From a virus (lineage: Duplodnaviria > Caudoviricetes): a DNA stretch of 56,250 nt. Below the pieces are notes generated by a model that was given only the letters and a program-made list of their open reading frames with translations, made no database searches and had not been told where the DNA came from. Shown here piece by piece: positions 3,693 through 22,797 of this stretch (the first letter of the stretch is position 1; each line of letters starts with the position of its first letter). A program made the translations under genes and the position numbers. The DNA is taken from IMG/VR virus record IMGVR_UViG_3300045000_000052, positions 1-56,250 of that record, one strand, 5' to 3'.

Positions 3693-3746
3693 GGGTGAGG
3701 CTCCCTCGGGGGTTCGGACAGACTAGCGGCGCGGTCCAGACGTGGA

Positions 3747-3783
3747 ACGGGGCCGAGCCCGATCGACTCGGACTCGGCCCCGT
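3747..3783 (-). terminator. GC-rich hairpin, probable terminator
   Basis: ACGGGGCCGAG...CTCGGCCCCGT inverted repeat just downstream of the SSB-like gene stop. Confidence 0.55.
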
Positions 3784-3792
3784 GTGAGTGAC

Positions 3793-4953
3793 TCAGCCCT
3801 GGGGCGCCCCGCTCAGGCGGCCCATCAGCCCGCTGGCGTACGGGTCACCCTGCTGCGGCTGGCCCTGCGGCGGACCCTGCTGGGCGTACTGCTGACCACC
3901 CTGCGGCGGCCCCTGCTGCCCCGGTGCGTTCGGCCCCGGCCCGGCGTAGCCCGGTGGCACGTTCGCCTGCGGCGGCACACCCCAACCGCCGGGTTGCGCC
4001 GGCGCGCCACCCTGCTGGTACTGCGGCTGCTGCTGGGCCGGCGGACCCTGCTGGGCGTACGCCGGCTGCTGCGGCTGCTGGTACTCCGGCTGCCCCTGCG
4101 GCGGGCCCTGCTGGGGGAACTGCCCCGGCGGCGGGCCCTGCTGGGCGTACTCCGGCTGGCCCTGGGGCTGCTGGTACTGCTGGGCCGGCGGCTGTTGCGG
4201 CGCGGTCTGCTCGACCGGCGCCGGCGGTGCCTGGGCGGGCTGGCCCTGCTGGCCGGGGCGCTGGTACTGCACCTCGTAGATACCCGCCGCGTTGAGCCCC
4301 GGGATCTGGCGCTCACCTGTCTTGCGCACCGCGATGACCGCGCCCGACTCGGGGTAGCCCGAGGGCGCGCCGGCCTGGGCCATGGCCCTGGTCAGCTCAC
4401 CCCACAGCCCACCCGAGCAGTACAGCTGAGCCCGGCCGTCCTTGAATTCTTCATCCGGTGCCACCGAGAGCGGCACCTTGAGCACCAGCTTGCGCCGGCC
4501 GTCCTTGAGCATGGCCGGCATGGTCGAGTTCGGCATGGTCTGCCCCTCGACATCCGCGTCGGACACCTCACGCGCCACCTGACCGACCCGCCAGCTGCCG
4601 AGGCGGTAGCCCTTGTCCGTGGCGAAACTCCACGCCTTGCCGTTGCCCCCGGTGGGTTGGTTGGCGAAGTCGGCGAGGGTGAAGTTTTCCGGCGGCGGCT
4701 GCTGCGGCTGCCCGTACGGCTGCCCGTAGCCCTGCTGGGGCTGCCCGTAGCCCTGCTGGGGCTGCCCGTACGGCTGCTGGTAGCCCGCCGGCGGCCCGTA
4801 GTTGGGTGGCGGCTGCTGGGCGGGCGGCCCGTAGTTCGGCGGCTGCTGATACCCCTGCTGCGGTGGCGGGCCCTGCTGGTATCCACCCTGCTGCGGCGCC
4901 GGCGGGTAGCCGCCCTGGCCCTGCTGGGGGAATCCCTGTTGTGGGTAGTTCAT
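3793..4953 (-). CDS. ssDNA-binding-like protein with long Q/P/G/Y low-complexity tails
   Basis: Start MNYPQQGF. A central folded segment (VGQVAREVSD...KLVLKVPL...AQLYCSG...YEVQY) resembles actinophage OB-fold SSBs; located between helicase and exonuclease. Confidence 0.55.
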   Translation of the reverse strand: MNYPQQGFPQQGQGGYPPAPQQGGYQQGPPPQQGYQQPPNYGPPAQQPPPNYGPPAGYQQPYGQPQQGYGQPQQGYGQPYGQPQQPPPENFTLADFANQPTGGNGKAWSFATDKGYRLGSWRVGQVAREVSDADVEGQTMPNSTMPAMLKDGRRKLVLKVPLSVAPDEEFKDGRAQLYCSGGLWGELTRAMAQAGAPSGYPESGAVIAVRKTGERQIPGLNAAGIYEVQYQRPGQQGQPAQAPPAPVEQTAPQQPPAQQYQQPQGQPEYAQQGPPPGQFPQQGPPQGQPEYQQPQQPAYAQQGPPAQQQPQYQQGGAPAQPGGWGVPPQANVPPGYAGPGPNAPGQQGPPQGGQQYAQQGPPQGQPQQGDPYASGLMGRLSGAPQG

Positions 4954-5005
4954 GATTGTTTTCCACTCTCCACTGTTGACTTCCAACCGGCATCGCGCCG
5001 GTGGT

Positions 5006-5878
5006 CTATGAGCGGGCCAGCTCGGCGCGGTGGCCGATGGTCCCGGGGCACCCGGTGCCGCCATCGCGGGCGGCTTGCGGGCGGTAGAACGGACAGAAAT
5101 AGCAGTCGTTGTCATCCGGCACGGCCGGCACATCCAGCAGCCCGGCCCGGCCGGACAGGATCGCCTCGGCCCACTTGCGCCGGTAGGCGGTGCGGTCGAT
5201 CACCTCGGCGATCAGCGCGTCATCGGCGACCGAGTACGGGTGATCCCAGACGTACATGCCATCGAGCGAGGCGGCGGTGGCCGGGTAGGCGACCAGGGCC
5301 ACCCGATCCACCCGGTAGCCGAGGTTCCGGTACCCCTGGGCGTAAAGGATCATCTGAATTTGGTAGTGGATCGGTGGCCCGTGCGGGCTGCGCACCTTGG
5401 CCATCGACGTCTCGCCCAAGAACTTGTGATCGAGCAGGGCGAACTGCCAGCAGTCATAGAGATCGGCGGTACCCGGCCCGTCCCCGTGCTCGGTGACGAA
5501 CGGGGCCACCTTGCGCTCGGTCAGCCAACGGGGGCGGGCCGGGTCCAGCCCGAGCCGCACGTTTTCCGCATCGAACGCGTCACCCGCGTAGACGTGTAGC
5601 GCGGTGCCCCGGATGCTGGGCCACGGATCCGCCACGTGATTGGTGACCGGCAGCTCGGCCATCTTGCCGGCCACCTGCCGATCACACCGCACGCCCAGCT
5701 CGGACGGGCCGAGGGTGCGCTGCAACGTGCGCGGCGCCACCGCGGCGTGCGCGTGGAACACCCGCCGCAGCTCGGCCCCCTGGCGCTGCGCCCACTCGGT
5801 GTTGCCGCCCAGCGGTGAGGGTGCCGAGTGTTTGAACGCGGCGATCTCGGCGGCCGGGATGCGGGCGGGCGCGGTCAC
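5006..5878 (-). CDS. Cas4/RecB-like PD-(D/E)XK exonuclease
   Basis: GPSELGVRCDRQ, RGTALH, GTADLYD, LLDHK, QIQMILYA and C-terminal CYFCPF...C (4-Cys cluster). Confidence 0.85.
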   Translation of the reverse strand: MTAPARIPAAEIAAFKHSAPSPLGGNTEWAQRQGAELRRVFHAHAAVAPRTLQRTLGPSELGVRCDRQVAGKMAELPVTNHVADPWPSIRGTALHVYAGDAFDAENVRLGLDPARPRWLTERKVAPFVTEHGDGPGTADLYDCWQFALLDHKFLGETSMAKVRSPHGPPIHYQIQMILYAQGYRNLGYRVDRVALVAYPATAASLDGMYVWDHPYSVADDALIAEVIDRTAYRRKWAEAILSGRAGLLDVPAVPDDNDCYFCPFYRPQAARDGGTGCPGTIGHRAELARS

Positions 5879-5883
5879 CCCGA

Positions 5884-6258
5884 TCAGCCCTTGTACCGCT
5901 CGAGGCGCCAGCTGGTGCTCTCGCTCGAGTAGTCGGCATACACCTGGGGGTAGTCCTTGCGTAGCGCCTTAGTGTTCATCCGGCGACTCACCACGCCGAG
6001 CATCCGCAGCGGGATCGAGAGCAGCGGCGAGTCCAGCAGGATGTTGGTCTTGCCGGGGGCGGCCGCCGCTAGCTCGGCCTTGAGCCCGTTGACCACCTCA
6101 TCCAGCTCTTCGGCCGACTCGGTGGCGCGCGCCTTGATTCGTTCGTACCGGTCGGCCAGCTGCTCGAGGCGGCTGCCGGGCTCGGGCCGGATGGTGACCG
6201 GCATGGCCGCGATCTCCTCGGCGGTCAGCGGTGGCGGGGGTGGAAGTTGATCGGACAT
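5884..6258 (-). CDS. Hypothetical protein (coiled coil; C-terminus resembles the tail of YqaJ-type recombinases)
   Basis: GGGAG RBS; ...RMNTKALRKDYPQVYADYSSESTSWRL. Confidence 0.6.
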   Translation of the reverse strand: MSDQLPPPPPLTAEEIAAMPVTIRPEPGSRLEQLADRYERIKARATESAEELDEVVNGLKAELAAAAPGKTNILLDSPLLSIPLRMLGVVSRRMNTKALRKDYPQVYADYSSESTSWRLERYKG

Positions 6259-6266
6259 GAGGCTCC

Positions 6267-6479
6267 CTATCGGTGGTTGGCGAACCGGGCGGCGGCGAGC
6301 ATCACCGACGCGTCCTGCTCGAGCTTTCGGGCGGGCAGGTCGGTGTGTGAGGGCATGCCGGGCGAGTAGACCGCGTCCTCGAAAACGTAGATCTTCTCGC
6401 CGCTGCTCAAGGTCCAGTAGGCCGAGCCGTCCGGGGTGCGCCCCTCGGGCAACGGCAGCTCGATCCGGATGATGTCCAT
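6267..6479 (-). CDS. Hypothetical protein
   Basis: MDIIRIEL start with AGGGAGAG RBS; compact spacing. Confidence 0.55.
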   Translation of the reverse strand: MDIIRIELPLPEGRTPDGSAYWTLSSGEKIYVFEDAVYSPGMPSHTDLPARKLEQDASVMLAAARFANHR

Positions 6480-6556
6480 CTCTCTCCCTGGTCGGGGCGG
6501 TGTAGGTCTAGCACCACCGGCTGACAACCCTTCACGGGCATCAACGAGGTGGGCGC

Positions 6557-6868
6557 TCACTCGGGTGCGGACTTGCGCCGGTTGGCTCGGCGCGCGGCCA
6601 CGGAGCCGTCTTTGCGCAGCGCCTGGTGCTCATCGGTGTGCTCGGGCTCGCGGTTGCACAGCCACCGGATCTTGTGGGCGGTGCGGTCGGTCCAGCGGTA
6701 TCCGCAGTAGGCGGGGTCGAGCGCGCCGAGCGGCGGGTGATCGGGCATGTTCGCCTCGATCTTGTCCAGCTCGGCGCGGGCCCAGGCCACGATGCGGGGG
6801 GAGTCCGGCCGTTCGGGCGGATCCTCCCATGGCGAATCATCAGGCTCGCCGGTTACCATCAGTGACAC
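6557..6868 (-). CDS. Hypothetical protein (C..C..H..H motif)
   Basis: ORF track; YCGYRW...LCNREPEHTDEH. Confidence 0.55.
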   Translation of the reverse strand: MSLMVTGEPDDSPWEDPPERPDSPRIVAWARAELDKIEANMPDHPPLGALDPAYCGYRWTDRTAHKIRWLCNREPEHTDEHQALRKDGSVAARRANRRKSAPE

Positions 6869-6923
6869 CTAGCTCTCGTTCGATTGCATCCTTGGTCGGG
6901 GCGGTCAGCGGATCTTGGTACTG

Positions 6924-7033
6924 GACACCCGCCTCGGGCCTCACACCCCCGGCGGGTGTCTTGCTGTGTGCGACTGGACGAACCCGCTCAGTAAATCACC
7001 GAGCGCAAGGTTCAGGCTACCCCCAACCTTGCG
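6924..7033. promoter_or_regulatory. Divergent control region with two inverted repeats
   Basis: GACACCCGCC/GGCGGGTGTC (6924-6960) and CGCAAGGTT-N12-AACCTTGCG (7004-7033) between divergent gene blocks. Confidence 0.5.
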
Positions 7034-7056
7034 AGACGTGTTTTACTGGGGTGGCC

Positions 7057-7305
7057 ATGACAGACACCGAGCACGTCACCACGTCCGACATCATGCGGAT
7101 GCTCGGCCGAAAAAATCTCGGCAGCGCTCGAGGGTGGATCCACACCCACCGCCTCGAACCGCTGCCGTGGCGCACCGCGAGCGGCGAGAACGTCTACCGG
7201 CTGACCGACGTCCAGGCGGCCATCGACACCGAACCGCGCGGCCGCTACCGCATGCCGCCCCGACCACAGAAACGAGAGACCGATGGCAACACGCGCCAAG
7301 CCTGA
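7057..7305 (+). CDS. MerR/excisionase-like HTH DNA-binding protein
   Basis: VTTSDIMRMLG...ARGWIHTHRLEP...GENVYRLTDV; first gene of the rightward arm. Confidence 0.65.
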   Translation: MTDTEHVTTSDIMRMLGRKNLGSARGWIHTHRLEPLPWRTASGENVYRLTDVQAAIDTEPRGRYRMPPRPQKRETDGNTRQA

Positions 7306-7564
7306 ACCGGACACCCGCGTCCAGGCGAACCCCTTCCTAGCTCGCCAGCTCGCCGCCGGCTGCAACCGCTACGCCGAGCTGCTGGTGCGCGCCGCCGAGG
7401 ACGCGGCCAAGTCTCCGAGCACCTACGACCAGGCCAACGACACCTACGTGGACAGCCCGGCGCCAGCCACCGCGATGGACCTCGAGAGCACCCGGGAGTT
7501 GGCCGACGTGTTCCGCCAGCACGCCGCCGAGCTGCTCGAGGCGCACCGAACGCGAGTCGAGTAG
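7283..7564 (+). CDS. Hypothetical protein
   Basis: ORF track, coupled to neighbours. Confidence 0.6.
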   Translation: MATRAKPEPDTRVQANPFLARQLAAGCNRYAELLVRAAEDAAKSPSTYDQANDTYVDSPAPATAMDLESTRELADVFRQHAAELLEAHRTRVE

Positions 7565-7567
7565 CTC

Positions 7568-7933
7568 ATGCCGATCATCAACCCAACCACCGTGCCCATC
7601 ACCACCACCACGATGGGGCGGCTGTTCATGCTCGCGGCGACGATGACCGCGCTGTCCTGCATGGCGTTGATCTTTGAGGCAGTGCTGGGGCTGCAACAGG
7701 TGCCGGTGCGCTACATCGTTGCCACGCTGCTCTCGGCCGGGTTCGCCGCCGGGTTCACCAACTGGACGCACCAGCGGCTGCTCGACGCCCAGGCTCGGGC
7801 CGATGCCGCCGACCGCGCCGCCGCCAAGGCAGCCGACCACCGGACCCCGCCCGAGTGGCGGCACAAGGGCGACCGGGGCCGCGACGCGGGTAGCGGGGAG
7901 TTCGGCGGGCCCCGCCGCGAGCCGCCGGAATAG
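7568..7933 (+). CDS. Two-TM membrane protein
   Basis: Two hydrophobic segments, then a charged tail with PPEW. Confidence 0.65.
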   Translation: MPIINPTTVPITTTTMGRLFMLAATMTALSCMALIFEAVLGLQQVPVRYIVATLLSAGFAAGFTNWTHQRLLDAQARADAADRAAAKAADHRTPPEWRHKGDRGRDAGSGEFGGPRREPPE

Positions 7934-7967
7934 TTCGATCACGCCATTCTGATTTTGTGAGGGAATC

Positions 7968-8234
7968 ATGAGTTACTGCCCTACCGGTCGGCACAGAAAT
8001 AGCGGTCACGGAGCGTGTTCTTGTGGGCGCTCAAAAGGAACAGGCGGCGCACAGTTCCGCTCGAGTGACGCTCGGTATAAGCGCGCCGGCGGTACGCCAC
8101 GGCGGCCCGCCTCGGGCGGCTTCTCGGCCACCCAACGCAACGCCTCGGCCGGGGGGTGCACCACGATGATCGGGCTGCTCAGCCTCGGTGCCGTGGTGCT
8201 CGCTCGCCTGGCCGGTCGCCGGCGGGGTAGGTAG
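7968..8234 (+). CDS. Small basic protein with GC-TM-RRR C-terminal anchor
   Basis: GAGGGA RBS; ends SAGGCTTMIGLLSLGAVVLARLAGRRRGR. Confidence 0.6.
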   Translation: MSYCPTGRHRNSGHGACSCGRSKGTGGAQFRSSDARYKRAGGTPRRPASGGFSATQRNASAGGCTTMIGLLSLGAVVLARLAGRRRGR

Positions 8235-8251
8235 CCGGCGGCACGGTTGCC

Positions 8252-8791
8252 ATGGGCGAGCACTCCGGACCGTATGAAACTCAGAGCCCCAACAAATCCG
8301 ATGAGGTAATGGATGTTGAGGCTGCGCTGTGTTTCGCGCTGGCCAGGGCCAATTACACGGTGCGCGATATCGCCAAACGGCTCAGCCTGGACGCCATGAC
8401 CGTCTGCCGCAGACTCGATAGATTGATCTTGTTACAAGCGCATCCGGGAAGATCCGTTATGCGCCTGATCGAGGCTGCTCGGGTCGATGACCTGGCCCGC
8501 GCCCTTGACCAGGTGCTGTACGGGCCACCCGGCCCGGACACCGACCCCGAGGCGTTCACCGAGCGCGCGGTGGCGACGCACCTCACGCCGGCGGACGTGG
8601 CCGCGCTGGTGCGCACCGGGCTGGCCGCCAGCGCCGCGCGCCGCGCGCTGTGGGGTCTGGACCACAGCGAGGAGAACAGCGCGGACACTCCACTCGAGCC
8701 CGCGGCTGAGCCCGAGCCCTGGGAGCTGGCCGCCCGCACGCACCGTGACGAACAGGAAGCCAAGATCAACAGGGGAGAGTTCGATGACTGA
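8252..8791 (+). CDS. HTH protein resembling a terminase small subunit
   Basis: N-terminal HTH (ARANYTVRDIAKRLSLDAMTVCRR), then E..R.D.L and AARRALWGLD, the R-R-x-L-x-G-L-D ending seen in actinophage TerS-like proteins. Confidence 0.55.
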   Translation: MGEHSGPYETQSPNKSDEVMDVEAALCFALARANYTVRDIAKRLSLDAMTVCRRLDRLILLQAHPGRSVMRLIEAARVDDLARALDQVLYGPPGPDTDPEAFTERAVATHLTPADVAALVRTGLAASAARRALWGLDHSEENSADTPLEPAAEPEPWELAARTHRDEQEAKINRGEFDD

Positions 8792-9428
8792 TGACGAGTT
8801 GAAGCGAGAGCGGCTGCTGGCCGCCTACGGCGCGCGCTGTGTGCGCCCCGGGTGTGACCACGCGTTCGCCTCGCACGTGCCCGAGCTGCGCCCCGGCTAC
8901 CGCGCGTGCGCCGAGGGGACGTGCGTGTGTGATGACCTGGTCAAGCCGCTGCACCTCACCCAGACTGGGCCGGCGGCGCGCATGCCGTTGGGCCGGCCGG
9001 GGTCCGCCGGTCTGCTGTCTGACCCCCCGGGCGGTGAGTCCACCCAGTTGTGCCCGCACCCGACCAGTACGCACACCGTTGACCACCAGTGGGCGCCCGG
9101 CGGATCGCGCTGCGGCTGCGGTGCGCTGGGCCCCACCGAGGCCATCCGGGCCGCCCGCGAGCGCTACCTGGCCGAGTCGCCCGCCCCCGATCGGTTCACC
9201 TCGGGGCGCCAGCGCTCACACCTGTTGGCCCGGCCGCGCCGTCCCGAGCCCGCCGCGCACGTGCCGGTGGCCGAGATGGTCATCTACCAGCACGCCGAGG
9301 GCGCCGGCAAGCGCGCCGCGCTGAACGTGGCCTACATCGAGGCGGCCGCCGCCGGGGTGCACATCCACGAATACGGGCCCGGCGGTCTCGCTCGGTCTGA
9401 CAACTGCCCGAGGGGATGCCAGCCGTGA
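8784..9428 (+). CDS. Cys/His-rich hypothetical protein
   Basis: MTDDELK; CVRPGCDHAFASH...CAEGTCVC. Confidence 0.6.
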   Translation: MTDDELKRERLLAAYGARCVRPGCDHAFASHVPELRPGYRACAEGTCVCDDLVKPLHLTQTGPAARMPLGRPGSAGLLSDPPGGESTQLCPHPTSTHTVDHQWAPGGSRCGCGALGPTEAIRAARERYLAESPAPDRFTSGRQRSHLLARPRRPEPAAHVPVAEMVIYQHAEGAGKRAALNVAYIEAAAAGVHIHEYGPGGLARSDNCPRGCQP

Positions 9429-9895
9429 CCAACCAACCCGAGGCGCGCCCGTGCGCGTGCGGGCACCTGAGCAACCGGCACAACGCGCTCGTTTCGGGCC
9501 CGTGCCAGCAGCTCGGCTGTGACTGTCCGGACTTCCGCGAGCCCGAGCCCGAAGCCATGTTCGTGGTCTCGGGTCGCCCGATCCGCCGAGGTGCCCATGG
9601 GCTCGACCGGTCGCCGCATGTGGTGGTGGACCGGGAGATGCTCGAGCGGCTCACCGAGGATCGGCGCATGCTCGCCGAGTTCCGCGCCAAGCTCGCCGCG
9701 GCGCTGGGCATGACCCGCACCGTGCCCGATGCCGAGCTGTTGAGCTACGTGCGCGACGCCATCCAGCACGCCCAGGCGTTGCCGGGCCCGGTGCGCTCGG
9801 GGCAGACCGTGACGATGGCGGACCTCGAGATCGGCTCACCGACCGAGGATGAGGCGGCCGCGTGGGCGGGCGACTCACCCGAGTGGACTCAGTGA
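9425..9895 (+). CDS. Cys/His-rich hypothetical protein
   Basis: GTGA coupling; CACGHLSNRH...CQQLGCDC. Confidence 0.6.
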   Translation: MTNQPEARPCACGHLSNRHNALVSGPCQQLGCDCPDFREPEPEAMFVVSGRPIRRGAHGLDRSPHVVVDREMLERLTEDRRMLAEFRAKLAAALGMTRTVPDAELLSYVRDAIQHAQALPGPVRSGQTVTMADLEIGSPTEDEAAAWAGDSPEWTQ

Positions 9896-10188
9896 TGGGC
9901 GGCTACGTGAACCCGGGCCGCCCGACCGGGGTCAAACAGCAGATACCCGGCGACCACTTTCGGCCCGATCTGCTCGAGCCCGAGCGCCCCGGCGATCACA
10001 TCTGGGCGGCCATGGCGCAGTACCGGGTGCGGGTCGAGACGCTGCGCGCCAAGGGGACAGACGGCGGCGCCCCGCTGCACCTGGACAAAGAGAACCTGAT
10101 CGGGGTGGTGATCGGCTGCTATGTGTGCGAGCAGCCCTACTCGGACCGCCTCGGGTACCGGCCATGCCCGGGTGATCCGAATGGGTAA
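9895..10188 (+). CDS. Hypothetical protein (CxxC)
   Basis: MGGYVNPG...GDHIW...GCYVCEQPY...CPG. Confidence 0.6.
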   Translation: MGGYVNPGRPTGVKQQIPGDHFRPDLLEPERPGDHIWAAMAQYRVRVETLRAKGTDGGAPLHLDKENLIGVVIGCYVCEQPYSDRLGYRPCPGDPNG

Positions 10189-10366
10189 GGCCAACGTGGC
10201 CGGGGGCACCATGACCTCCGCGCTGTGCCCTCGGTGCCGGGCGCATCGGCTGTTCCGGGTGCCGCTCTCGCCCGCCCAGTTGGTCACCTCGGGGCGCACC
10301 GCGCAGCTGATGTGCGCTGACCAGGTGCACTGTCTCTACACCGACACGGAGGCGAGCAGACCATGA
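10181..10366 (+). CDS. Small zinc-ribbon protein
   Basis: CPRC...CADQVHC. Confidence 0.5.
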   Translation: MGKANVAGGTMTSALCPRCRAHRLFRVPLSPAQLVTSGRTAQLMCADQVHCLYTDTEASRP

Positions 10367-10620
10367 GCATGCCCAACCCGATGCGTGATGACTTTGAGCC
10401 GCCGGCCCGCTCGGGGTGGGTTCACGATCACCCCATCACCACCGGGCTCGGCATCGCGCTGGTGCTGGCCATCGTGGTGGTGATCATCCTGCTGCTCACC
10501 GGGGGGCTGGCGGCCAACCCGCCGTACTCGACCTGGTGCGACCAGGGCCCCAACGGCAACCGGATCTACGAAAGCCACAGCGGTGACATCGCCGTGGTGC
10601 CGGCGGACAAGACATGCTGA
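10363..10620 (+). CDS. Single-TM membrane protein
   Basis: GLGIALVLAIVVVIILLL hydrophobic run. Confidence 0.65.
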   Translation: MSMPNPMRDDFEPPARSGWVHDHPITTGLGIALVLAIVVVIILLLTGGLAANPPYSTWCDQGPNGNRIYESHSGDIAVVPADKTC

Positions 10621-10838
10621 CCTGGCGGGCGGGCGACGTGGCGCGCAAGGAACGCGCCGAGGATGTGTTTGAGCTGCTCGAGGGTGGCGGCTGGCGCTAC
10701 ATCGGAACCATGGTCAGCGCGGCGCATGCCCGGCGAGCGTGCGCGGTGACCCGGCCGAACCCGTACGTGCCGCACGCGCACGATCTGCCCGCCGGCGGGC
10801 GCGGTGACTGGGAGGACAGCAGGGGGGCGGACGGGTGA
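10614..10838 (+). CDS. Hypothetical protein
   Basis: ORF track, overlapping coupling. Confidence 0.5.
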   Translation: MLTWRAGDVARKERAEDVFELLEGGGWRYIGTMVSAAHARRACAVTRPNPYVPHAHDLPAGGRGDWEDSRGADG

Positions 10839-11131
10839 CGCACCCGGTTGAGTTCGGCGAGTGCCCGGCGTGCGAGCGGTGGGGCCAGCTCGAGTACCGC
10901 CAGGACTGGACGCTCTACGTGCACCACGCCGAGCGCGTGATCCACCTGGTGCCGATCGCCCCGCCGGCGGGCACCGCGCTGTTCACCGCCTGCCCGGATT
11001 GCATGCGCGGTTTCCTGCCCCGGTCCAACGCTCGGCTGGCGGGCAACCGCATCGTGAGTCACACGTCCTTCAATCCGTGCTGGCGCTGCAAAGCCACCGG
11101 CCAGGTGCCCGGGTTCGTGATGCCGGCATGA
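10835..11131 (+). CDS. Zinc-binding hypothetical protein
   Basis: CPAC, CPDC, H...C..C. Confidence 0.55.
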   Translation: MTHPVEFGECPACERWGQLEYRQDWTLYVHHAERVIHLVPIAPPAGTALFTACPDCMRGFLPRSNARLAGNRIVSHTSFNPCWRCKATGQVPGFVMPA

Positions 11132-11268
11132 GGGTGCTCGCCTCGATCGTCGTGCTGCTCGCGCTGCTGTCCGCCGCGAGCGGGTCGATCTGGCCGCTGC
11201 TGTCCGCCGGGTGCCTGATCGTGGTGCTGCTCGAGCTGGGCCGGGGCCGCTGGCGGTGGCCGAGGTGA
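11128..11268 (+). CDS. Small membrane protein
   Basis: MRVLASIVVLLALLSAASG...LIVVLLEL; ATGA/GTGA coupling on both sides. Confidence 0.5.
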   Translation: MRVLASIVVLLALLSAASGSIWPLLSAGCLIVVLLELGRGRWRWPR

Positions 11269-12833
11269 GCCTGTCTGGCCTCGAGCGGTCGCTGTACGGG
11301 GCGACCACCCTGGCGGGCCCGCCGGACTGGGATGGCAGCTGGTACCAGGCTCGGCTCAACAGCGACGCCATCCGGTGGTTCAAAGCCGAGGCGCGCTACC
11401 CCGAGCGGCTGCCCGGTCGGCAGTACCGGCGTGATCTGTGCGAGCACAACCCGCTGCTGTTCATGTTGATCTACCTCACGCACCACCTGCGGACACCGCG
11501 CCTCGGTGGGGCGATCGTGCTGTCTCGGTTCCACCTGGACGCGCTGCACTACTGCCGGCGCTGGGCGTATCAGGACTGGGGGATCGGGGAGTGCCGCGAC
11601 GGGTGGCTGACCGCGCGCAAGGGCGGCAAGTCCACGGTGTTCCTGGTCGGGCTGCTGCTGTGGGCGCTGGCCTATGAGCATCGCCGGTTCGCCCTGGTCA
11701 TCGCGCACACCGGCAACATGGTCAGCAAACACATGGTGACCTTGCGCCAGGAACTGCGTAACAACGCGCACCTACGCGCCGATTTCCCCGAGTTGTGTAC
11801 CCCGCTCAAACAGCGTGGCCGGGCGGTGATGGACAACGCCGAGGGCTACATAGCGGCCAGCGGGGTGATGTTCATGGTGATGGGGTTCGGTCGGGCCGCC
11901 CTCGGTATCAAGGTCGGGGTCGAGCTGCCCGATCTGATCTTGGTTGATGACGGTGAGGGGCATGAGGAGAAATACTCCCTGCACCAGAAAGGCCAGCGGC
12001 TCAAGACGCTGCGCCAAGCCATCCTGCCGATGAATGAGTACGCCGTGGTCAACCTGATCGGCACCACGGTGCGGCACGGCTCGATCATGCATGACGTGGC
12101 CCGGGGCGCCGCCTGGGTGCAGTCCGAGCAGATCCGGGCGCACCACTATCCGGCGCTCGAGACCGACCCCGACACCGGCGAGCGGCGCTCGGCGTGGCCG
12201 GCGCGGTGGCCCCTGGGCTGGCTACTGGCGCACGAGATGGAACGCGGGTTCGCCCTCAACTACCTGTGTGACCCCCTAGCCCCGGGCGAGGGTAGCTACT
12301 GGTCGGATGAGATGTTCACCTACCCGAGCCCGTCGATCCGGGTGGGCGTGACCAGCCGGGCCCTGAGCATCGACCCGACCGACCTGGCCAACGCCGATCA
12401 CAACGACTGGACCGGCATTGTTCAGGGCGCGTTCGCCGCCCCGTACGGCAAGGCGATCATCGAGCACTCGGTGGGGCTCAAGCCGAGCGAGGCGGAATTG
12501 CGGGATCGGGTACACCGGATGATCCGCAACTCGCCGGAGGATTGCCCGATTACCTATGCGTTGATCGAGATGAATAAGGGCGGCAGCCTGGTCAAACAGA
12601 TCTGTTCGCCGCTGCCCCGGGGGGTGAAATGGGTCGAGGTGTTCGCCACCGAGCACAAGCTGTCCCGCCTCGGCCGGGCCGCCGACCGGTTCAGCCGCGG
12701 TGAGGTGTTCCTGGGCGATACCCTGCCGTCCCTACAGCGCCAGCTCAAAGCGGTGCCGAATGGTGATCATGACGATGAGGCGGACGCGATGGCCCAGTAC
12801 CTCGATGACGTGCTGCCGGACGAGTACACCTAA
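11265..12833 (+). CDS. terL: Second terminase large subunit (ATPase + RNase H-like nuclease)
   Basis: Walker A ARKGGKST, Walker B DLILVDDGE, IGTTVRH coupling motif, WPARW, SIDP, EMNKGG, HDDEADA. Confidence 0.85.
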   Translation: MSLSGLERSLYGATTLAGPPDWDGSWYQARLNSDAIRWFKAEARYPERLPGRQYRRDLCEHNPLLFMLIYLTHHLRTPRLGGAIVLSRFHLDALHYCRRWAYQDWGIGECRDGWLTARKGGKSTVFLVGLLLWALAYEHRRFALVIAHTGNMVSKHMVTLRQELRNNAHLRADFPELCTPLKQRGRAVMDNAEGYIAASGVMFMVMGFGRAALGIKVGVELPDLILVDDGEGHEEKYSLHQKGQRLKTLRQAILPMNEYAVVNLIGTTVRHGSIMHDVARGAAWVQSEQIRAHHYPALETDPDTGERRSAWPARWPLGWLLAHEMERGFALNYLCDPLAPGEGSYWSDEMFTYPSPSIRVGVTSRALSIDPTDLANADHNDWTGIVQGAFAAPYGKAIIEHSVGLKPSEAELRDRVHRMIRNSPEDCPITYALIEMNKGGSLVKQICSPLPRGVKWVEVFATEHKLSRLGRAADRFSRGEVFLGDTLPSLQRQLKAVPNGDHDDEADAMAQYLDDVLPDEYT

Positions 12834-12848
12834 GACCACCCGATCGTG

Positions 12849-12944
12849 CGTACCGCTTGTCTTTCAACTGTTTGGAAAAAGCCCAAAGAGTGCGGTAGGG
12901 TGACGGAGCACGACAAGAACCGCCCCGACCAGCTAAGGGATCAC
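12849..12944 (+). promoter_or_regulatory. Promoter/operator/leader cassette, copy 1
   Basis: TTGGAA-N18-TAGGGT overlapped by ACTGTTTG-N9-CAAAGAGT; closely similar to 18446-18536. Confidence 0.7.
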
Positions 12945-14117
12945 ATGACCACCTCGCCCGCCCCCCGCACCCGCTCAGCCGCCGCGCGCATCGCCGAGGG
13001 CATCCGCCGCATCGACACCGCTCGCGACTACCGCCGTGTCTGCTCGATGGCCCGCGGCGCCAAGTTCGACCACGCCGAGCCGATCGGCCCTGATGACTCG
13101 GGCGAGCGTTTCGAGCTGAACTACACCGAGTCCGCCCCCCGCCAGACCGCCGCCGATGAGGCTTACGCCGCTTACGTCACCGGCTGCGCGTGCGACCTGA
13201 CCGACCACCGCCACACCGCCGAGTGCTCCGCGCGCTGGGATGCCGCCGCCGAGGCTGCCGAGGTCGAGCAGGACGCGCCGGTGTTCGAGGTCGGTCAGCG
13301 GGTCCGCTTCACCGCCGACATCGGCAGCCCCGAGCTGGTGCACGTCACCGGCGTCATCGCCGAGGTTGGCCCCCGCGAGTCCGTGGTCACGCTGGACGCC
13401 AAGGTGCTCGGCTACTCGCCCGAGCTGCGGTCGTTCAACCGCTACATCGAGCCCGTGCCCGAGGTGGACCCCACCGAGCTGACCGCCGTGGAAGCGGTCC
13501 GCCTGGTCACCCGCCGGTCCCAGGCCATCACCGCCGATAAGGCTGAGCGGGCCACGCGGCGCCGGGTCGAGCACGGGCGCCTGTACCGGGCCGAGCTGCG
13601 CGCGTACGGGGTGCCGGTCGCCCAGCTGCTGTACCCCGAGCCGGCGGGCCCGATCACCCCCGAGGTGGCCGCGTGGCTCGGCATCGGCCCCGCCGAGGTG
13701 CCCACCAAGGCGCAGCTTGAGGCGGCCGAGTACGCCGCCGCGCTGCGCACCCTGGCCGACATCGTGGAAGCGACCCCCGAGGTGCACCGGTACAACGATT
13801 TCTACGCGTGGTACGGCGGCAGCCGCGCCGACCTGGCCGCCGTCACCCGGGCCGCGCTGGCCGCCGGCGCGACCGTGGCCAAGGACATCGACGAGACGAG
13901 TTACAACGTTGAGCTGCGCATCGGCCCGCTCAAGGTCTCGGCGCTGGCCAGCCGGCGCAACGTCTGTGAGCGCGTCGTCCTCGGTACCGATGAGGTGACC
14001 CGGACGGTGCCAGACCCGGCCTACGTGGCCGAGCCGGTGCCCACCATCGAGGTCACCGAGACCGTGGAGCGCATCGAGTGGCGCTGCACGCCGCTGCTGG
14101 CCGAGGGCGGCGAGTAA
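12945..14117 (+). CDS. Hypothetical multi-domain early protein
   Basis: AAGGGA RBS, strong GC3 bias; FEVGQRVRF SH3-like segment. Confidence 0.75.
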   Translation: MTTSPAPRTRSAAARIAEGIRRIDTARDYRRVCSMARGAKFDHAEPIGPDDSGERFELNYTESAPRQTAADEAYAAYVTGCACDLTDHRHTAECSARWDAAAEAAEVEQDAPVFEVGQRVRFTADIGSPELVHVTGVIAEVGPRESVVTLDAKVLGYSPELRSFNRYIEPVPEVDPTELTAVEAVRLVTRRSQAITADKAERATRRRVEHGRLYRAELRAYGVPVAQLLYPEPAGPITPEVAAWLGIGPAEVPTKAQLEAAEYAAALRTLADIVEATPEVHRYNDFYAWYGGSRADLAAVTRAALAAGATVAKDIDETSYNVELRIGPLKVSALASRRNVCERVVLGTDEVTRTVPDPAYVAEPVPTIEVTETVERIEWRCTPLLAEGGE

Positions 14118-14160
14118 GACTCGGGCCCGGGCGGTCGATCCCACCACCCCGGCCCTGCCC

Positions 14161-14214
14161 GAGATCGGTGGGTGCGGTGCGCACTGGGGAGCGGGTAGCG
14201 CGCCCACCGATCTC
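14161..14214 (+). terminator. Long hairpin, probable terminator
   Basis: GAGATCGGTGGGtGCG...CGCGCCCACCGATCTC followed by CCTTTA. Confidence 0.55.
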
Positions 14215-14268
14215 CCTTTACCCAACCAACGAGATCAACAGTCATAGGAAACGGAGGCATGGCCCACC

Positions 14269-14601
14269 ATGCTGATCAATCACGCGAGATGCCACCACGG
14301 ACCGGGCGCCGGCGGTGATCTGTGCCGGATGAAAGCCAAGCGGCTGCCGCTCGGGGCCATCCGGTGGGTGACCGGTTACGCCCGGTTCTCCCGCCCCACC
14401 ATCGGCGTGGTGGTCCAGCACCCAGTGTCCTCGCCGCGCCCCCTGGTCGGCATCCACCGCCGCGACATGGCCGGGCATTGGCTGCCCGCGTCGATGCTCG
14501 AGCTGACCCCCGAGCAAGCCGCTCAGCTGGGCGCCGCGCTGGTCGAGGCGGCCGCCGCGGCACTGGACTCGGCCGAGGCGGACCGGGCGGGGTGCGCATG
14601 A
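14269..14601 (+). CDS. Hypothetical protein
   Basis: GGAGG upstream; start uncertain. Confidence 0.55.
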   Translation: MLINHARCHHGPGAGGDLCRMKAKRLPLGAIRWVTGYARFSRPTIGVVVQHPVSSPRPLVGIHRRDMAGHWLPASMLELTPEQAAQLGAALVEAAAAALDSAEADRAGCA

Positions 14602-14858
14602 TGACGATGAGCCGCTGTCCGTACCCCCAGTGCCGCCAGGACTTCACCGACCGGGCCGAGCTGGATGAGCACCTGATCACCGTCACCCGCCACGATGACC
14701 CCGACCACCGGGCGTTTCCGGACGGGGGGCTGCGCACCCGGTGTGCGGACATGCGGCCCAGTCACCACCACTGCGAGCACGGGCACGCCAACGACTGCCC
14801 GGACCCCGGCGAGTGCATACCGCTACCGGCCGGGGGCAAGCGGTGGGGCCAGCGATGA
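14598..14858 (+). CDS. C2H2-like zinc-finger protein
   Basis: CPYPQCRQDFTDRAELDEHLITVTRH, plus a second Cys/His cluster. Confidence 0.6.
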   Translation: MMTMSRCPYPQCRQDFTDRAELDEHLITVTRHDDPDHRAFPDGGLRTRCADMRPSHHHCEHGHANDCPDPGECIPLPAGGKRWGQR

Positions 14859-15034
14859 GCAACGCCGAGGGCTACCAGGCGCCGTCTGAGCTGGCCGAGC
14901 GGATCCGGGATGTTGTCCGCAAAGCGCACGAACCCTGCCCTCAACAGGGCTGCGCGTTGTCGGTCATCTGGGCCAGCGATGTGCAGGAGATCCTCGACAT
15001 CCGTGACCAGCTGCTCGGTGAGGCCACCCAGTGA
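14855..15034 (+). CDS. Hypothetical protein
   Basis: ATGA coupling. Confidence 0.5.
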   Translation: MSNAEGYQAPSELAERIRDVVRKAHEPCPQQGCALSVIWASDVQEILDIRDQLLGEATQ

Positions 15035-15201
15035 CCGCCGTGCCACCGGTGCCCGCCCGGGCCCGCAACGCCCACCACGCCGAGCACTCGCCGAGCCAGG
15101 TGGTGCTGTGGTGGCGCCACGTCCGCTACTTGTGGCGTGAGCGCCGCAACCGCCACTGAACCGACCGCCCCGACCAAGTTCGCACGTGAGGAGATCAGGA
15201 G

Positions 15202-15480
15202 ATGGGTTTCATCCGCCGCGCCATCGAGCGTGACCAGGCAGCGCACGCCGCGTTCGTCGCGCCGCCGCCCTACATCGAGAACGCCCGGCAAGCTCGGGAA
15301 GCGGCCAAGGCCGACCGAGACCAGCAGACCGCGCGGGAGCAAGCGCACCAGCGGGCCAAGTTCGCGGCCCGGGCCGAGCGGGAGAACGCCGAGCGCGCCG
15401 AGCGGGCCCAGGCCGAGCAGGACGCGCACACCCGCCGCCTGGCCGCCGCCGTGGTGGACGAGATCGTGCGCCGGCGGTGA
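15202..15480 (+). CDS. Coiled-coil hypothetical protein
   Basis: AGGAG RBS; A/E/R-rich. Confidence 0.65.
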   Translation: MGFIRRAIERDQAAHAAFVAPPPYIENARQAREAAKADRDQQTAREQAHQRAKFAARAERENAERAERAQAEQDAHTRRLAAAVVDEIVRRR

Positions 15481-15752
15481 GCGCCAAGGCGATGAACGCG
15501 CGGCTGCTCGAGCTGGTCACGGTAGTCATCCCGGTGCTCGTCAAGGCCGAGGGCGGCGCCACCCAGGAACAGCTCAACCCCCTGGCCAGCGTGGTCAAGT
15601 ATCTGGGCCTGGACGCTGACTCGGACGCTGACCTCGCTCTGTTGGCCGGCGCGGTCGAGGTGGCCCGGTGGGTGATGCTCAACGCCGAGCTGGCACAGAG
15701 CGAACCCGCCGACGTCTGGGCCCGCTACTGCTGGGGGGCCACTCATGGGTGA
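15477..15752 (+). CDS. Hypothetical protein
   Basis: GTGA coupling. Confidence 0.6.
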   Translation: MSAKAMNARLLELVTVVIPVLVKAEGGATQEQLNPLASVVKYLGLDADSDADLALLAGAVEVARWVMLNAELAQSEPADVWARYCWGATHG

Positions 15753-16002
15753 GTGGCTGACCCCCGGGTGGGAAGCGACCGGCCGAGAGCGGCGCCAGCG
15801 CCTCGCACAGATCGAGGCCACCGAGCGCCGGCTGAAAGGCAACCCGGCCGCGCTGCGCCAGTTCCACCGTGACCAGGCGCGGGCGCTCGAGGCCACCAAG
15901 CGCAGCTACCAGGCGTCGCACCCGGGTGAGGGTTGCTTCACGCTGATCGGCCTGCTCGGGCTGCTCGGCGTGCTGCTGGCCCGCGTCCTCCGGCGGCGCT
16001 GA
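15745..16002 (+). CDS. Small basic protein with GC-TM-RRR C-terminal anchor
   Basis: Ends PGEGCFTLIGLLGLLGVLLARVLRRR. Confidence 0.65.
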   Translation: MGEWLTPGWEATGRERRQRLAQIEATERRLKGNPAALRQFHRDQARALEATKRSYQASHPGEGCFTLIGLLGLLGVLLARVLRRR

Positions 16003-16079
16003 TGGCCTGGCGCCCGCACCGGCACCGCGCCTGGCGCCGGCGCATAAGTTGCCCGCCCCAACAAACAGGAGAGCCTCAC

Positions 16080-16910
16080 ATGACTGATCAACCGAACGTA
16101 GAACCGCCCGGCGCCGAGCTGGGCATCACCCTCGAGCAAGCGCGCGCCAACATCGGCCGCCAGGTCGAGTACGTGGCCGGTGATCTACCGGACCGCGTCG
16201 CGTTCATCGAGCGCGGCCGCCTCACCGGCATACCGCCGAGCGAGGACGGCGCTAACGCGTTCGTCACGTTCGACAACGCCGAGGGCGCCAAGGCGACCCC
16301 ACTCGAGCGGCTGCGGCTGCTCGAGCGGCCGCGCTCGCTGGCCGAGCTGGCCGATCAGCTCGATGAGATCGAGGCGCGGCACCCGGCGCCGGCGCCCGAG
16401 CCCACCTTGAGCGGGTTGGCCGCCGCGCTGCACAACGCCGCCGAGGATCCGCACAACGATCACTGCGGCGAGTATGAGGGGCTCACCGAGGGCGATGCCG
16501 AGTTCCTGGCCCAGGTGGCGCGCGTCTGGATGGACAGTCAGGTCAAGCCGGCGCCGCCCACCGGTACCCCCTGGGCGCCGATGCAACCGGCGATGCCGTA
16601 CCCGATGCAGTGGGGCGACCAGCCGCCGCCCTGGGGCCAGCCGCCGGCCGTGCCCGCCGAGGTGCCGGACCTGATCGAGCAACGCGAGTGGCTGCCGGTG
16701 GTGACCCCCCATGTGGCCGGTGAGCGCGTCATCTACCGGGGCCGCCCGATGGACCCGGCGCTGCTGGCCATCGTGGTCTCGGTCCAGCAGAACCCCTCGG
16801 GCGTGGTGGCGGTGTGTCAGTACACCGTGCGGGTTCCCTACCTCGGCCAGACACTCGGCGCGTACGCCGATCAGCTGGCGCCCTGGTATGCGCCTGAGCC
16901 GGACTTCTGA
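16080..16910 (+). CDS. Hypothetical protein
   Basis: AGGAGAG RBS, MTDQPNV start. Confidence 0.65.
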   Translation: MTDQPNVEPPGAELGITLEQARANIGRQVEYVAGDLPDRVAFIERGRLTGIPPSEDGANAFVTFDNAEGAKATPLERLRLLERPRSLAELADQLDEIEARHPAPAPEPTLSGLAAALHNAAEDPHNDHCGEYEGLTEGDAEFLAQVARVWMDSQVKPAPPTGTPWAPMQPAMPYPMQWGDQPPPWGQPPAVPAEVPDLIEQREWLPVVTPHVAGERVIYRGRPMDPALLAIVVSVQQNPSGVVAVCQYTVRVPYLGQTLGAYADQLAPWYAPEPDF

Positions 16911-17110
16911 TGGGCCGGCGGCTGTACCCGCTGCCCTGGGGCTACCGGTTCGGGTGGGCGCTGGTGCTGCTCGGGTGCGCCGCCCTCGCGGTGGCGCTCT
17001 CGCTGGGGCTGCGCGCGGCGGGTCTGACCGTTGCCCAGGTGGTGCTGTTCGTGGTGGTCGCCGGCGGCGCCCTGGCCTGGTCGGTCTGGGTGTGGCGGGG
17101 GCCCCGGTGA
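16910..17110 (+). CDS. Two-TM membrane protein
   Basis: Hydrophobic segments, TGATG coupling. Confidence 0.6.
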   Translation: MGRRLYPLPWGYRFGWALVLLGCAALAVALSLGLRAAGLTVAQVVLFVVVAGGALAWSVWVWRGPR

Positions 17111-17448
17111 AGCTGCTCGGGGGCTGGTCGGTCGGCGCCGATCTGCCTCTGCTCACCCTGGCCGACGTGCCGCCGGTCGCACGCCGCGATGACTCGGTGG
17201 CCGAGTGGCGAGCCCTGGCGGGACTGGACGCCGCGGCCAAGCTGGCCTCGGCGGGCATCACCCCGGCGCCGCCGCCTCGGCCGTGCGAGTGCCGCCGCAT
17301 CCTGGTCGACACCGGGCACCTCGGCGCGCCGGCCTGGCACCTCGAGCACGACTGGCTTGACGATGGCCGGGTGTGCTGCCTCGAGCGGGCCGCCTGGAAA
17401 GGTCAGCTGTGCTGGTGCCGGGCGAGTCAGTGGGTGCCGAATGAGTAG
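17107..17448 (+). CDS. Cys-rich hypothetical protein
   Basis: GTGA coupling; CEC...HLEH...CC...CWC. Confidence 0.5.
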   Translation: MKLLGGWSVGADLPLLTLADVPPVARRDDSVAEWRALAGLDAAAKLASAGITPAPPPRPCECRRILVDTGHLGAPAWHLEHDWLDDGRVCCLERAAWKGQLCWCRASQWVPNE

Positions 17449-17659
17449 CCGCCCGGACAGCTGGCGGCCAGGGCCCGGGGCGCGGCGGCCCTACTGGGAG
17501 GCCAGGTTCACCGGTGAGTGTGAGGCATGCCCGAGCCCGATCGAGGTGGGCCAAGAGATCATGCGGGCGGACGCCGGCGGCTATGTGCACGTGACGTGTC
17601 CGGTGGCCCCCAAGGCCGACAAGTTCGACGGTACCGATGACAAGTCGATGGGATTCTGA
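17441..17659 (+). CDS. Small zinc-binding protein (CxxC...HxxC)
   Basis: ARFTGECEACPSPIEVGQEI...HVTC. Confidence 0.6.
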   Translation: MSSRPDSWRPGPGARRPYWEARFTGECEACPSPIEVGQEIMRADAGGYVHVTCPVAPKADKFDGTDDKSMGF

Positions 17660-17982
17660 TGAGCGAGAAAGGTGCGGCCAGCCGGGCAACCTCGGCGCAG
17701 CGCCGCGAGTGGGCGGCCCACTATGACGCGCAGGTCCGCGCCGGCGCCCGGGTGAACCGCTCGGGCGGGATGCGGCGCATCCAGGACGCGGACGGGGATT
17801 GGTTTCAGCGCAACGCCAACAGCTGCAACGGCTCGGGCTGGCACTCCCTGGCCGACAAGCCGGACATGCGCAAGCCGCCCAGCATCAACCGGCAGTCGGC
17901 CAGCTCGGGATGTTTCGGCCTGATGTCGCTCGGCCTGGTCGCCGTGACCGCGCTCGGGCTGGCGCTGGGCCGGCGGCGATGA
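17659..17982 (+). CDS. Small protein with WAAxYD domain and GC-TM-RRR anchor
   Basis: Ends SASSGCFGLMSLGLVAVTALGLALGRRR; N-terminus similar to 22334-22735. Confidence 0.65.
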   Translation: MSEKGAASRATSAQRREWAAHYDAQVRAGARVNRSGGMRRIQDADGDWFQRNANSCNGSGWHSLADKPDMRKPPSINRQSASSGCFGLMSLGLVAVTALGLALGRRR

Positions 17983-18266: not shown

Positions 18267-18445
18267 AGCTCACGCGCTGGGAACTCGCCGCCGTCATCCT
18301 GGCCGCCTGGGCGCTGGGCATGGCCACGTTCGCCGGCCTGGCCATCCTCTCGGGGTTGTAGGCGGCCGGGCCGGGGGGGCAACGCCTCATATGTGCTGAT
18401 AGATGGGCGAACCCTCGCCGGCCCACGCGAATCACCCAAATAGAC

Positions 18446-18806: not shown

Positions 18807-18884
18807 TCACCGAGCGGGCCCGCCACCACGGGGGCCCGCTTCCTACCCGCCCCCATCAACCCACCCGCCAGGGAGCCTCGCACC

Positions 18885-22735: not shown

Positions 22736-22797
22736 GATCCACTGTCCACTGATCGACTACTACTCAAGAGCCCACAACACAGAACAGGTGAAACACC

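Follow-up and report, generated by a model that had tools for sequence, protein, structure and literature searches.

The closest described relatives of the gene pair reported here are the terminases of the phages OscarSo, Dryad, Yara and Zuko and of the satellites MiniFlayer and MulchRoom, which we refer to as group A. The pair, coding for a small (TerS2) and a large (TerL2) terminase subunit, is found in the IMG/VR virus record IMGVR_UViG_3300045000_000052 (Duplodnaviria; Caudoviricetes), a linear soil-phage record of 56,250 bp with a CheckV completeness estimate of 76%; "the window" in the following is this entire record. For both subunits the group A terminases are of the same families as TerL2 and TerS2: their TerLs are 29-37% identical to TerL2 over 87-88% of the length and have the same catalytic residues, and their TerSs are related to TerS2 by profile. 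Unlike TerL2, however, they are followed by a portal gene and end in a basic tail of 22-39 residues. Group A is the clade of portal-adjacent TerLs that is sister to a deep clade including TerL2, here called group B, from which it also differs in that a group A TerL was the sole TerL detected in its genome by phrog_9 and phrog_2 searches (0/20 contigs with another).

Capsid-forming satellites (those of the MiniFlayer/MulchRoom type and the cf-PICI, phage-inducible chromosomal islands that form capsids) carry their own TerS-TerL-portal-capsid block within a small element without replication genes. The TerL2 locus is unlike this type, since no portal or capsid gene adjoins it and its flanks are phage genes that are collinear in a second viral contig (G001, see below). 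Packaging is a known battleground of co-resident viruses, as described in portions of reports on the TerS of Staphylococcus aureus pathogenicity islands (SaPI) and on a satellite that manipulates the packaging motor of ICP1 (PMC10690885; bioRxiv 10.1101/2024.04.22.590561), and a prophage defence that targets a rival's terminase, TERi, is described in part of a report on Listeria (bioRxiv 10.1101/2025.02.27.640495). As far as those portions go, the satellite and prophage interference systems use TerS alone or small inhibitors and reside in satellites or prophages, whereas the pair in the window, known from its genes alone, is a full catalytic TerS-TerL in a complete phage with a terminase of its own.

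"Terminase-like" proteins encoded in non-structural arms are mentioned for Adephagia (gp72 and gp85) and for cluster C1 mycobacteriophages (Pham3880) in sections of two papers (PMC11373665; PMC5050341). According to these sections they are, like TerL2, terminase-like folds outside the packaging operon, a likeness by description, and they were named from structure or profile matches only. Published instances of "two terminase genes" are mostly split genes, going by the relevant part of one source (PMC10773633). Our searches of open-access full text turned up no account of a conserved TerS-TerL pair that lacks a portal and accompanies a canonical terminase.

Identity of TerL2

The features on which the argument turns are the following.

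8252-8791, plus strand: TerS2, small-terminase homologue of 179 aa with a helix-turn-helix (HTH), a helical region, the motif RRALWGLD and a conserved acidic C-terminus
8784-11268, plus strand: eight small abutting or overlapping genes, among them genes for Cys-rich/Zn-ribbon proteins and two predicted membrane peptides
11265-12833, plus strand: TerL2, accessory large terminase (ATPase and nuclease) of group B, by phrog_38 match, fold and catalytic residues
51923-53464, minus strand: portal, the sole one in the window (PF05133, 1e-22; phrog_104, 4.7e-118)
53483-55183, minus strand: TerL1, canonical portal-adjacent large terminase (phrog_19179, 6.6e-144; phrog_21277, 2.9e-80; phrog_9, 5.3e-41)

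Because lists of open reading frames (ORFs) are noisy at the GC content of the window (~70%), genes were called by GC at the third codon position (GC3), which gave 84 genes. The calls were annotated with PHROGs and Pfam, and the PHROG labels quoted are those of the library.

An earlier note, made from the letters of the window alone, had reported a full TerL motif set at 11265-12833. Every motif is indeed present in the translation, which holds ARKGGKST, LILVDDGE, LIGTT, LSIDP and HDDEADA (11211 and 11256 are alternative starts to 11265), and the protein matches phrog_38, "terminase large subunit", over residues 35-514 (E = 7.1e-41). Over 87-88% of its length it shares 34-37% identity with the packaging TerLs annotated in OscarSo (Microbacterium) and in Dryad, Yara and PHTowN (Streptomyces), and its identity to the TerLs of the satellites MiniFlayer and MulchRoom is 30-34%. 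No Pfam family matched TerL2 or TerL1 at E <= 0.01, NCBIfam gave only a sub-threshold match to TerL2, and a PDB sequence search with TerL2 returned a single chance-level match. The AlphaFold (AF2) model of TerL2, built with 16 sequences, has a mean predicted local distance difference test (pLDDT) score of 85.9 and a predicted template modelling (pTM) score of 0.72. The best Foldseek matches of this model in the PDB are all large terminases (PhiV-1 with E = 2.8e-17, then T4 gp17, D6E, HK97 and Sf6), and there are 61 matches at E <= 0.001; the low TM-scores of 0.31-0.41 can be expected where two domains are joined by a free hinge.

The residues R118, K122, D228, D229, E231 and G266-T267, which cover Walker A with its lysine, the Walker B aspartates with a catalytic glutamate and the coupling motif, are invariant in 9/9 members of TerL2's own clade and in 91/91 portal-linked relatives. 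The acidic residues D370, D381, E435, D503, D504 and D507, which from the alignment to other TerLs we take to be metal ligands of the RNase H-like nuclease, are kept in 9/9 members of the own clade. The C-terminal tail has 14 residues with a net charge of -4, and GC3 of the gene is unremarkable (0.88 in the window, 0.90 in G001). Judged by its family, its catalytic residues and the modelled two-domain fold, TerL2 is an intact large terminase. Frames and catalytic residues are kept, in line with the intactness that the earlier note had inferred, and the non-terminase ATPase family that it had named as a possible refutation is not borne out by the phrog_38 match and the terminases found with Foldseek.

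Among solved structures TerL2 is matched best by a TerL whose structure was determined in a complex with Avs3 (8dgc_E, E = 2.8e-17), and TerL2 thus has a fold of the kind that Avs-type sensors recognise. This lends something to the proposal that TerL2 is a decoy, as the earlier note had also suggested, or a sponge for terminase-sensing immunity, with no enzymatic role. The proposal fits poorly, however, since a passive decoy would not need conserved catalytic residues, and those of both domains are invariant in the window's clade (9/9) and nearly so in the rest of group B. The TerS partner is also retained, and an extra TerL should presumably trigger such sensors rather than blind them. We consider a decoy very improbable.

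TerS2 and the gene run to TerL2

The protein encoded at 8252-8791 had been described in the earlier note as an HTH protein ending in RRALWGLD. The protein exists, but the motif occupies residues 130-137 of 179 and is followed by ~40 conserved acidic residues. Database matches to TerS2 are weak (Pfam HTH_23, E = 0.0071; phrog_645, E = 0.0048), and its own sequence family (A4) is tiny, with seven proteins, all of the phage lineage of the window. The profile of this family (P0016-P0022) nevertheless matches 13 ORFs in canonical loci, 13/13 of which lie upstream of TerL on the same strand. The A4 family was also compared with A3, an alignment of ten ORFs upstream of canonical TerLs of TerL2's family, and hhalign aligned the two over 161 columns, i.e. 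the full length, with a probability of 97.7% (E = 2.5e-12), which bears out the suggestion that the HTH protein is TerS-like. The A3 profile matches TerS2 (9.8e-11) as well as OscarSo gp4, an annotated terminase small subunit (5.7e-11), Zuko gp6 (9.1e-35) and Dryad gp1 (1.3e-8), and the A3 motif RRAKLLGLDA is the counterpart of RRALWGLD in TerS2.

All ten A3 ORFs (10/10) match phrog_645, which is labelled "Rnase E" in PHROGs, and Zuko gp6, directly upstream of the Zuko terminase, bears the same label. In dozens of loci (cf. L106 3466-4020) a gene of the phrog_645 type stands upstream of TerL, in the place usual for a small terminase. The label looks wrong because of this position and because of the match to the annotated TerS of OscarSo. 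We have named 8252-8791 TerS2 since the family profile and the position link it to the TerSs of canonical loci; on this sequence evidence it is a TerS-like homologue of the small terminase that partners TerL2's type of TerL.

TerS2 and TerL2 share a strand and, as had been noted, a gene run, in which they are 2.5 kb apart with eight genes between them; canonical TerS-TerL gaps reach 3.4 kb. The genes of the run 8252-12833, in the GC3-frame calls, are small and tightly abutting or overlapping, and, as the earlier note had it, TerL2 lies among them on the strand opposite to that of TerL1. None of the eight intervening genes matches a PHROG, PADLOC or NCBIfam family; a Zn_ribbon match for 10835-11131 (E = 7.5e-4) is below the cut-off. 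They are partly conserved in G001, L084 and L086. Their interpretation as co-captured cargo was rejected, there being no homologues in canonical TerL loci.

Portal linkage, C-terminal tails and phylogeny

A first survey of portal linkage covered 92 loci from two scans, with six partial matches and L088, which has no downstream sequence, left out. A portal gene lies just downstream on the same strand in 89/89 loci outside the window's clade (57 recognised by Pfam, 15 by our own portal profile and 17 by a six-frame search), and there is no downstream portal at L002, L084, L085 or the window TerL2. Among bacterial genomes and metagenome-assembled genomes (MAGs) of Actinomycetota, 16/17 relatives of the TerL have a portal downstream and 12/17 have an A3-type TerS upstream. 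The C-terminal tail after the last nuclease motif has 12-15 residues and is acidic in the window's clade, as against 23-39 mostly basic residues in 91/91 portal-linked relatives. The C-terminus of TerL binds the portal in T3, lambda, SPP1 and P22, according to the passage of the source that concerns these phages (PMC13595956).

A profile search of 1.84 billion representative proteins gave 1972 matches at E <= 1e-3, in which the window's clade is a single representative (1094 bits) and the next match scores 423 bits. Among the 150 best matches, tails of at most 19 residues are found in 32 of the 116 that were measurable. The short tail is therefore a mark of group B as a whole, and the view of the short acidic tail as a recent loss of portal docking was withdrawn. 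A viral-contig scan seeded by short-tailed proteins yielded 25 informative loci, among which a portal follows in 12/12 with tails of at least 23 residues and lies within 6 kb in 0/13 with short or unmeasurable tails.

In a tree of 82 TerLs (quick IQ-TREE search, midpoint-rooted), 51/51 portal-adjacent proteins lie on one side of a branch with an SH-aLRT support of 99. The other side holds all 16 portal-distant TerLs, including the window's clade, together with 15 short-tailed proteins of unknown context. TerL2 thus falls outside the 51-member portal-adjacent clade, across the deepest supported split, and the ranges of tail length are without overlap (10-20 residues in group B, 22-36 in group A). 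By its placement in the tree, its 14-residue tail and the missing downstream portal, TerL2 is not a member of group A.

The catalytic residues were checked in 23 further members of group B beyond the window's clade (12 of known and 11 of unknown context). The Walker A Lys, the catalytic Glu and the first Walker B Asp are each present in 23/23, the second Walker B Asp is Asp in 22 and Glu in one, the nuclease Asps are kept in 23/23 and the nuclease Glu is E in 19, D in three and A in one. A TerS-like gene lies upstream in 12/12 of the further loci, eight recognised by the A3 profile and four by BLAST clustering with those. All carriers of group B are uncultured contigs; the 50,697 records of isolate phages that were searched yielded no member, and the best matches there were group A proteins of at most 37% identity. 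On these comparisons TerL2 is not a one-off but a member of an old actinophage clade of portal-unlinked terminase pairs.

Some members of the family are unusually long. Proteins of 850-1030 aa (P0025, P0026, P0039, P0101, P0103 and others) match the TerL profile in two or three stretches, and the phrog_9-type TerL of G013 lies within a 909-aa open frame (29825-32398). These are probably intein-bearing terminases.

Related contigs and selection

The window is a metagenomic contig with an estimated completeness of 76%, and the earlier note had named an assembly chimera and neutral decay as outcomes that would refute an intact second terminase. Neither is borne out. G001, a second viral contig of 64 kb with a completeness of 74%, matches the gene order of the window collinearly along the entire plus-strand arm and carries both terminases; the identities between the two are 68% for TerS2, 78% for TerL2, 80% for TerL1 and 86% for the portal. 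Three short metagenome contigs carry TerL2 at 71-91% identity, and members of the TerL2 clade in protein databases are 57-91% identical. A scan of genome contigs with TerL2-clade-specific patterns gave no match, as did single-protein scans of viral contigs with TerL2 and with P0006 and P0005, two of its nearest outgroups (P0005-P0007, P0023 and P0027).

The ratios of nonsynonymous to synonymous substitution rates (dN/dS; Nei-Gojobori) for TerL2 pairs are 0.14-0.37, and between the window and G001 they are 0.27 for TerL2, 0.28 for TerS2, 0.24 for TerL1, 0.20 for the portal and 0.26 for a methyltransferase. The absolute values are inflated by strong GC3 bias, and the comparison within the genome is the control. 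The ATPase and nuclease domains of TerL2 are conserved to an equal degree. As judged from these ratios, TerL2 and TerS2 are under purifying selection like TerL1 and the portal.

An artefact or a dead passenger, i.e. a chimera of the assembly or a decaying remnant of a captured packaging module, would be in line with the metagenomic origin of the window and with the GC3 of TerS2, which is the lowest of the 84 genes (0.79 against a median of 0.90) and is low in G001 too (0.80). The same arrangement is, however, present in an independent contig and in three further fragments, the frames are intact with dN/dS values like those of essential genes, and the group B clade is deep and conserved. The probability that we assign to this explanation is negligible.

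Co-occurrence with another terminase and gene neighbourhoods

The earlier note had proposed a search for related phages with both TerLs. G001 has both, and another, canonical TerL is found elsewhere in 12/13 of the group B contigs tested. This second TerL is of the phrog_9 type in nine contigs (the window, G001, G011, G013, G014, G015, G017, G019 and G020) and of the phrog_2 type in three (G012, G021 and G018). As a control, a phrog_9- or phrog_2-type TerL was found in 0/20 long group A contigs, eight of them at least 90% complete, while the positive controls matched. In the group B contigs inspected the other TerL abuts the portal (7/7). The resident portals belong to three PHROG families (phrog_104, phrog_2662 and phrog_64) and the resident TerLs to two families, and a distance of 21-36 kb separates the group B gene from the portal or the other TerL, with the exception of G012. 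A conserved docking partner is unlikely given this range of portals and primary TerLs.

The group B pair of G012, a contig that is complete and has direct terminal repeats, is embedded in the head module (59.4-68.2 kb; L210). The gene order there is phrog_2 TerL, portal, ~4 kb, TerS-like gene, group B TerL, head protease, scaffold and major head protein.

Nine phages with a TerL1 45-60% identical to that of the window have no TerL2-like gene, with G001 as positive control; group B is therefore accessory and not a fixed partner of the TerL1 family. The neighbours of group B genes include an endolysin and tail genes of the converging arm (L217, L213), a serine recombinase with an HTH_3 protein (L197), and HTH_31-DUF5753 and DUF6879 genes (L221), and these neighbourhoods are typical accessory-gene positions. 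In six group B lineages a further gene family, absent from the window, is located just upstream of the TerS-like gene (L213 3-542, L215 2447-3061, L216 3340-3918, L217 2017-2310, L218 3176-3490 and L219 1130-1474).

The window itself is organised in three arms.

3-6868, minus strand: replication/recombination arm with RecE-like, exonuclease, SNF2 helicase and HNH genes and a truncated PrimPol start
7051-24886, plus strand: arm in which nearly all genes are orphans
25176-55557, minus strand: structural arm with TerS1 candidate, TerL1, portal, protease, major head protein, tape measure and tail genes

The TerS2-TerL2 pair comes soon after the start of the plus-strand arm, which diverges from the replication arm. 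This position, in an arm diverging from genes for RecE-like and exonuclease proteins, an SNF2 helicase and PrimPol-PolA, would suit a role in the phage's own DNA metabolism, in which the pair makes site-specific breaks for recombination-dependent replication, resolves concatemers or degrades host DNA. TerL nucleases can cut DNA in vitro in the absence of a portal, which is also in keeping with such a role. Other group B pairs adjoin lysis, tail or lysogeny genes, however, and not replication genes, and bulk degradation of host DNA needs no TerS partner. We regard a function in DNA metabolism as distinctly unlikely.

The canonical terminase and the probable genome end

The earlier note had called TerL2 visibly dissimilar to the packaging TerL at 53483-55183. 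This is confirmed by BLASTP, which detects no similarity between TerL2 and TerL1 (best E = 1.6), and by the motifs PQKAGKG and GFDGS that TerL1 holds. TerL1 is ~52% identical to the TerLs of Arthrobacter phages, is matched in 2017 records of isolate phages and is a member of a very common actinophage TerL family. A six-frame search of the window with the portal profile gave a single match, the portal beside TerL1. There is none in the arm of TerL2, from which this sole portal is 39 kb away, in agreement with the earlier note's remark that no portal is nearby.

Two further features lie beyond TerL1.

55180-55557, minus strand: TerS1 candidate, by position only, directly upstream of TerL1
56240-56250, no strand assigned: probable physical genome end, where the ends of the window and of G001 fall at one homologous position to within 2 nt

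The TerS1 candidate gives no match to the A3 TerS profile (E = 1.9). It does match phrog_226, labelled "minor tail protein", a label that, like that of phrog_645, looks wrong for a gene at the TerS1 position. The coincident contig ends lie ~600 bp beyond the candidate (window 55500-56250; L082 3500-4155). The last ~280 bp of the window are ~80% identical to G001 and may encode a small minus-strand gene. From this coincidence, the shared contig end is probably a physical genome end of the cos type, and it would have been made by TerS1/TerL1, which lie beside it.

The main rival to the explanation that we propose below is a second packaging motor, in which TerS2 and TerL2 would attach to the procapsid of the phage itself to package a second substrate. 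This substrate could be the phage genome, at another site or in a replicative form, host DNA, which would result in transduction, or a dependent element; alternatively the pair could be a back-up for a blocked TerS1/TerL1. The conservation of all translocase and nuclease residues, the retained cognate TerS and the pair within the head module of G012 are in line with such a motor, as is the portal of the window, which is SPP1-like as are the portals of group A. On the other hand, the portals that accompany group B are of three families and the primary TerLs of two, most contigs place the group B gene 21-36 kb away from the portal, the tail of TerL2 is short, unlike that of TerL1, and the contig ends map beside TerS1. 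On balance we find a second motor unlikely.

Proposed function

As read from the genes, TerS2 and TerL2 together form a complete second terminase that is intact, kept by selection and located apart from the portal and capsid genes. In the explanation that we lean to, the heads of the window phage would be filled by TerS1/TerL1, which are adjacent to the portal and beside which the contig ends coincide. TerS2 would recognise a DNA site and TerL2 would bind ATP and cut, and they would do so without docking on a portal, as suggested by the three portal families, the two primary TerL families and the short tail. It is tempting to speculate that the pair is used in inter-virus conflict, where it could cut or jam the DNA of co-infecting phages or satellites that use a group A terminase with a related TerS. 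The conflict reading draws on the homology between the TerSs of the two groups, the accessory locations of group B and the precedent of packaging as a target in conflicts. A second terminase uncoupled from the portal and used in inter-virus conflict is, as a joint explanation, possible, and we put it forward tentatively. The more specific proposal that group B is an ancient exaptation of TerS and TerL into a portal-independent, sequence-guided DNA weapon against the packaging sites of group A-type rivals seems to us somewhat unlikely.

Several observations weigh against the conflict explanation. No second TerL was found in G016 (53% complete), and the co-occurrence count leaves out the record of L203 and a second record with the L213/L214 sequence. 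In G012 just 4.6 kb separate the group B gene from the portal, and the head protease lies on its other side. PADLOC-DB has no family (0 at E <= 0.01) for TerL2, TerS2 or eight neighbouring and other proteins of the window, and 15 of the group B proteins in the tree are of unknown context. Early expression of the pair is deduced solely from its place in the arm diverging from the replication genes. TerS2 bears no sign of an arms race, its dN/dS of 0.28 being like that of housekeeping genes, and the strict conservation of the ATPase motifs is most simply accounted for by translocation, i.e. packaging. The short tail separates groups A and B, yet it is no proof of lost portal binding.

Other features of the window and of G001

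The gene directly 3' of TerL2 codes for a protein without a family in Pfam, PHROGs, PADLOC or NCBIfam.

12900-14117, plus strand: 405-aa protein directly 3' of TerL2

It is conserved in G001 (58-69%) and is not downstream of TerL2 in L084 or L085, nor is the gene common to canonical TerL loci. A degenerate portal was considered for this protein and rejected, as it did not match a profile of 57 portals. Likewise, the 320-bp "gap" upstream of TerS2 was rejected as a conserved non-coding site, as it contains a conserved small ORF. This ORF (7968-8234, plus strand) is kept in G001; its product is Cys-rich at the N-terminus and carries a membrane helix at the C-terminus (…MIGLLSLGAVVLARLAGRRR), and the product of 15745-16002 ends in a similar C-terminal helix.

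The replication arm and the plus-strand arm diverge from an intergenic region of 180 bp, in which an inverted repeat of 24 nt, 79% complementary with a 12-nt spacer, lies at 6989-7048 and has the look of an operator. A promoter and terminator scan of 6200-15200 gave nothing above shuffled controls, and a search for repeats in 6500-13000 turned up no persuasive pac-like array. In G001 a single 1560-aa ORF (L107 1935-6617, minus strand) fuses Prim-Pol, DUF5906 (helicase-like), 3'-5' exonuclease and family A DNA polymerase; the truncated first ORF of the window (3-938, minus strand) is the Prim-Pol start of this fusion. Between the window and G001, conservation in the plus-strand arm is highest (82%) for a DNA methyltransferase-like gene (19678-20433, plus strand; phrog_363, E = 2e-18) and the gene next to it on the upstream side.

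No tRNA gene was found in the 56,250 bp of the window and no integrase among 75 of its proteins scanned at E <= 1e-4. Positions 1-25000 gave no megablast match to isolate phages. A search of sequencing runs returned only four soil-metagenome runs of one study, with a word share of at most 0.14, and no RNA run among them.

Significance

The rule of one terminase per tailed phage, located next to the portal, is used for annotation, for the typing of packaging strategies and for phylogenies. The group B pair breaks this rule repeatably (12/13 contigs versus 0/20 controls), and surveys that use TerL as a marker can miscount or misplace its carriers. If the pair is a second packaging route, it bears on the making of transducing particles or of dependent elements. 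If it acts outside packaging, it would represent a new use of a well-studied motor and an entry to phage-phage and phage-satellite conflict in soil Actinomycetota. Should the proposed role as a weapon against the packaging of rivals be true, group B would be a virus-encoded immunity of Actinomycetota phages and prophages that is built from a packaging enzyme.

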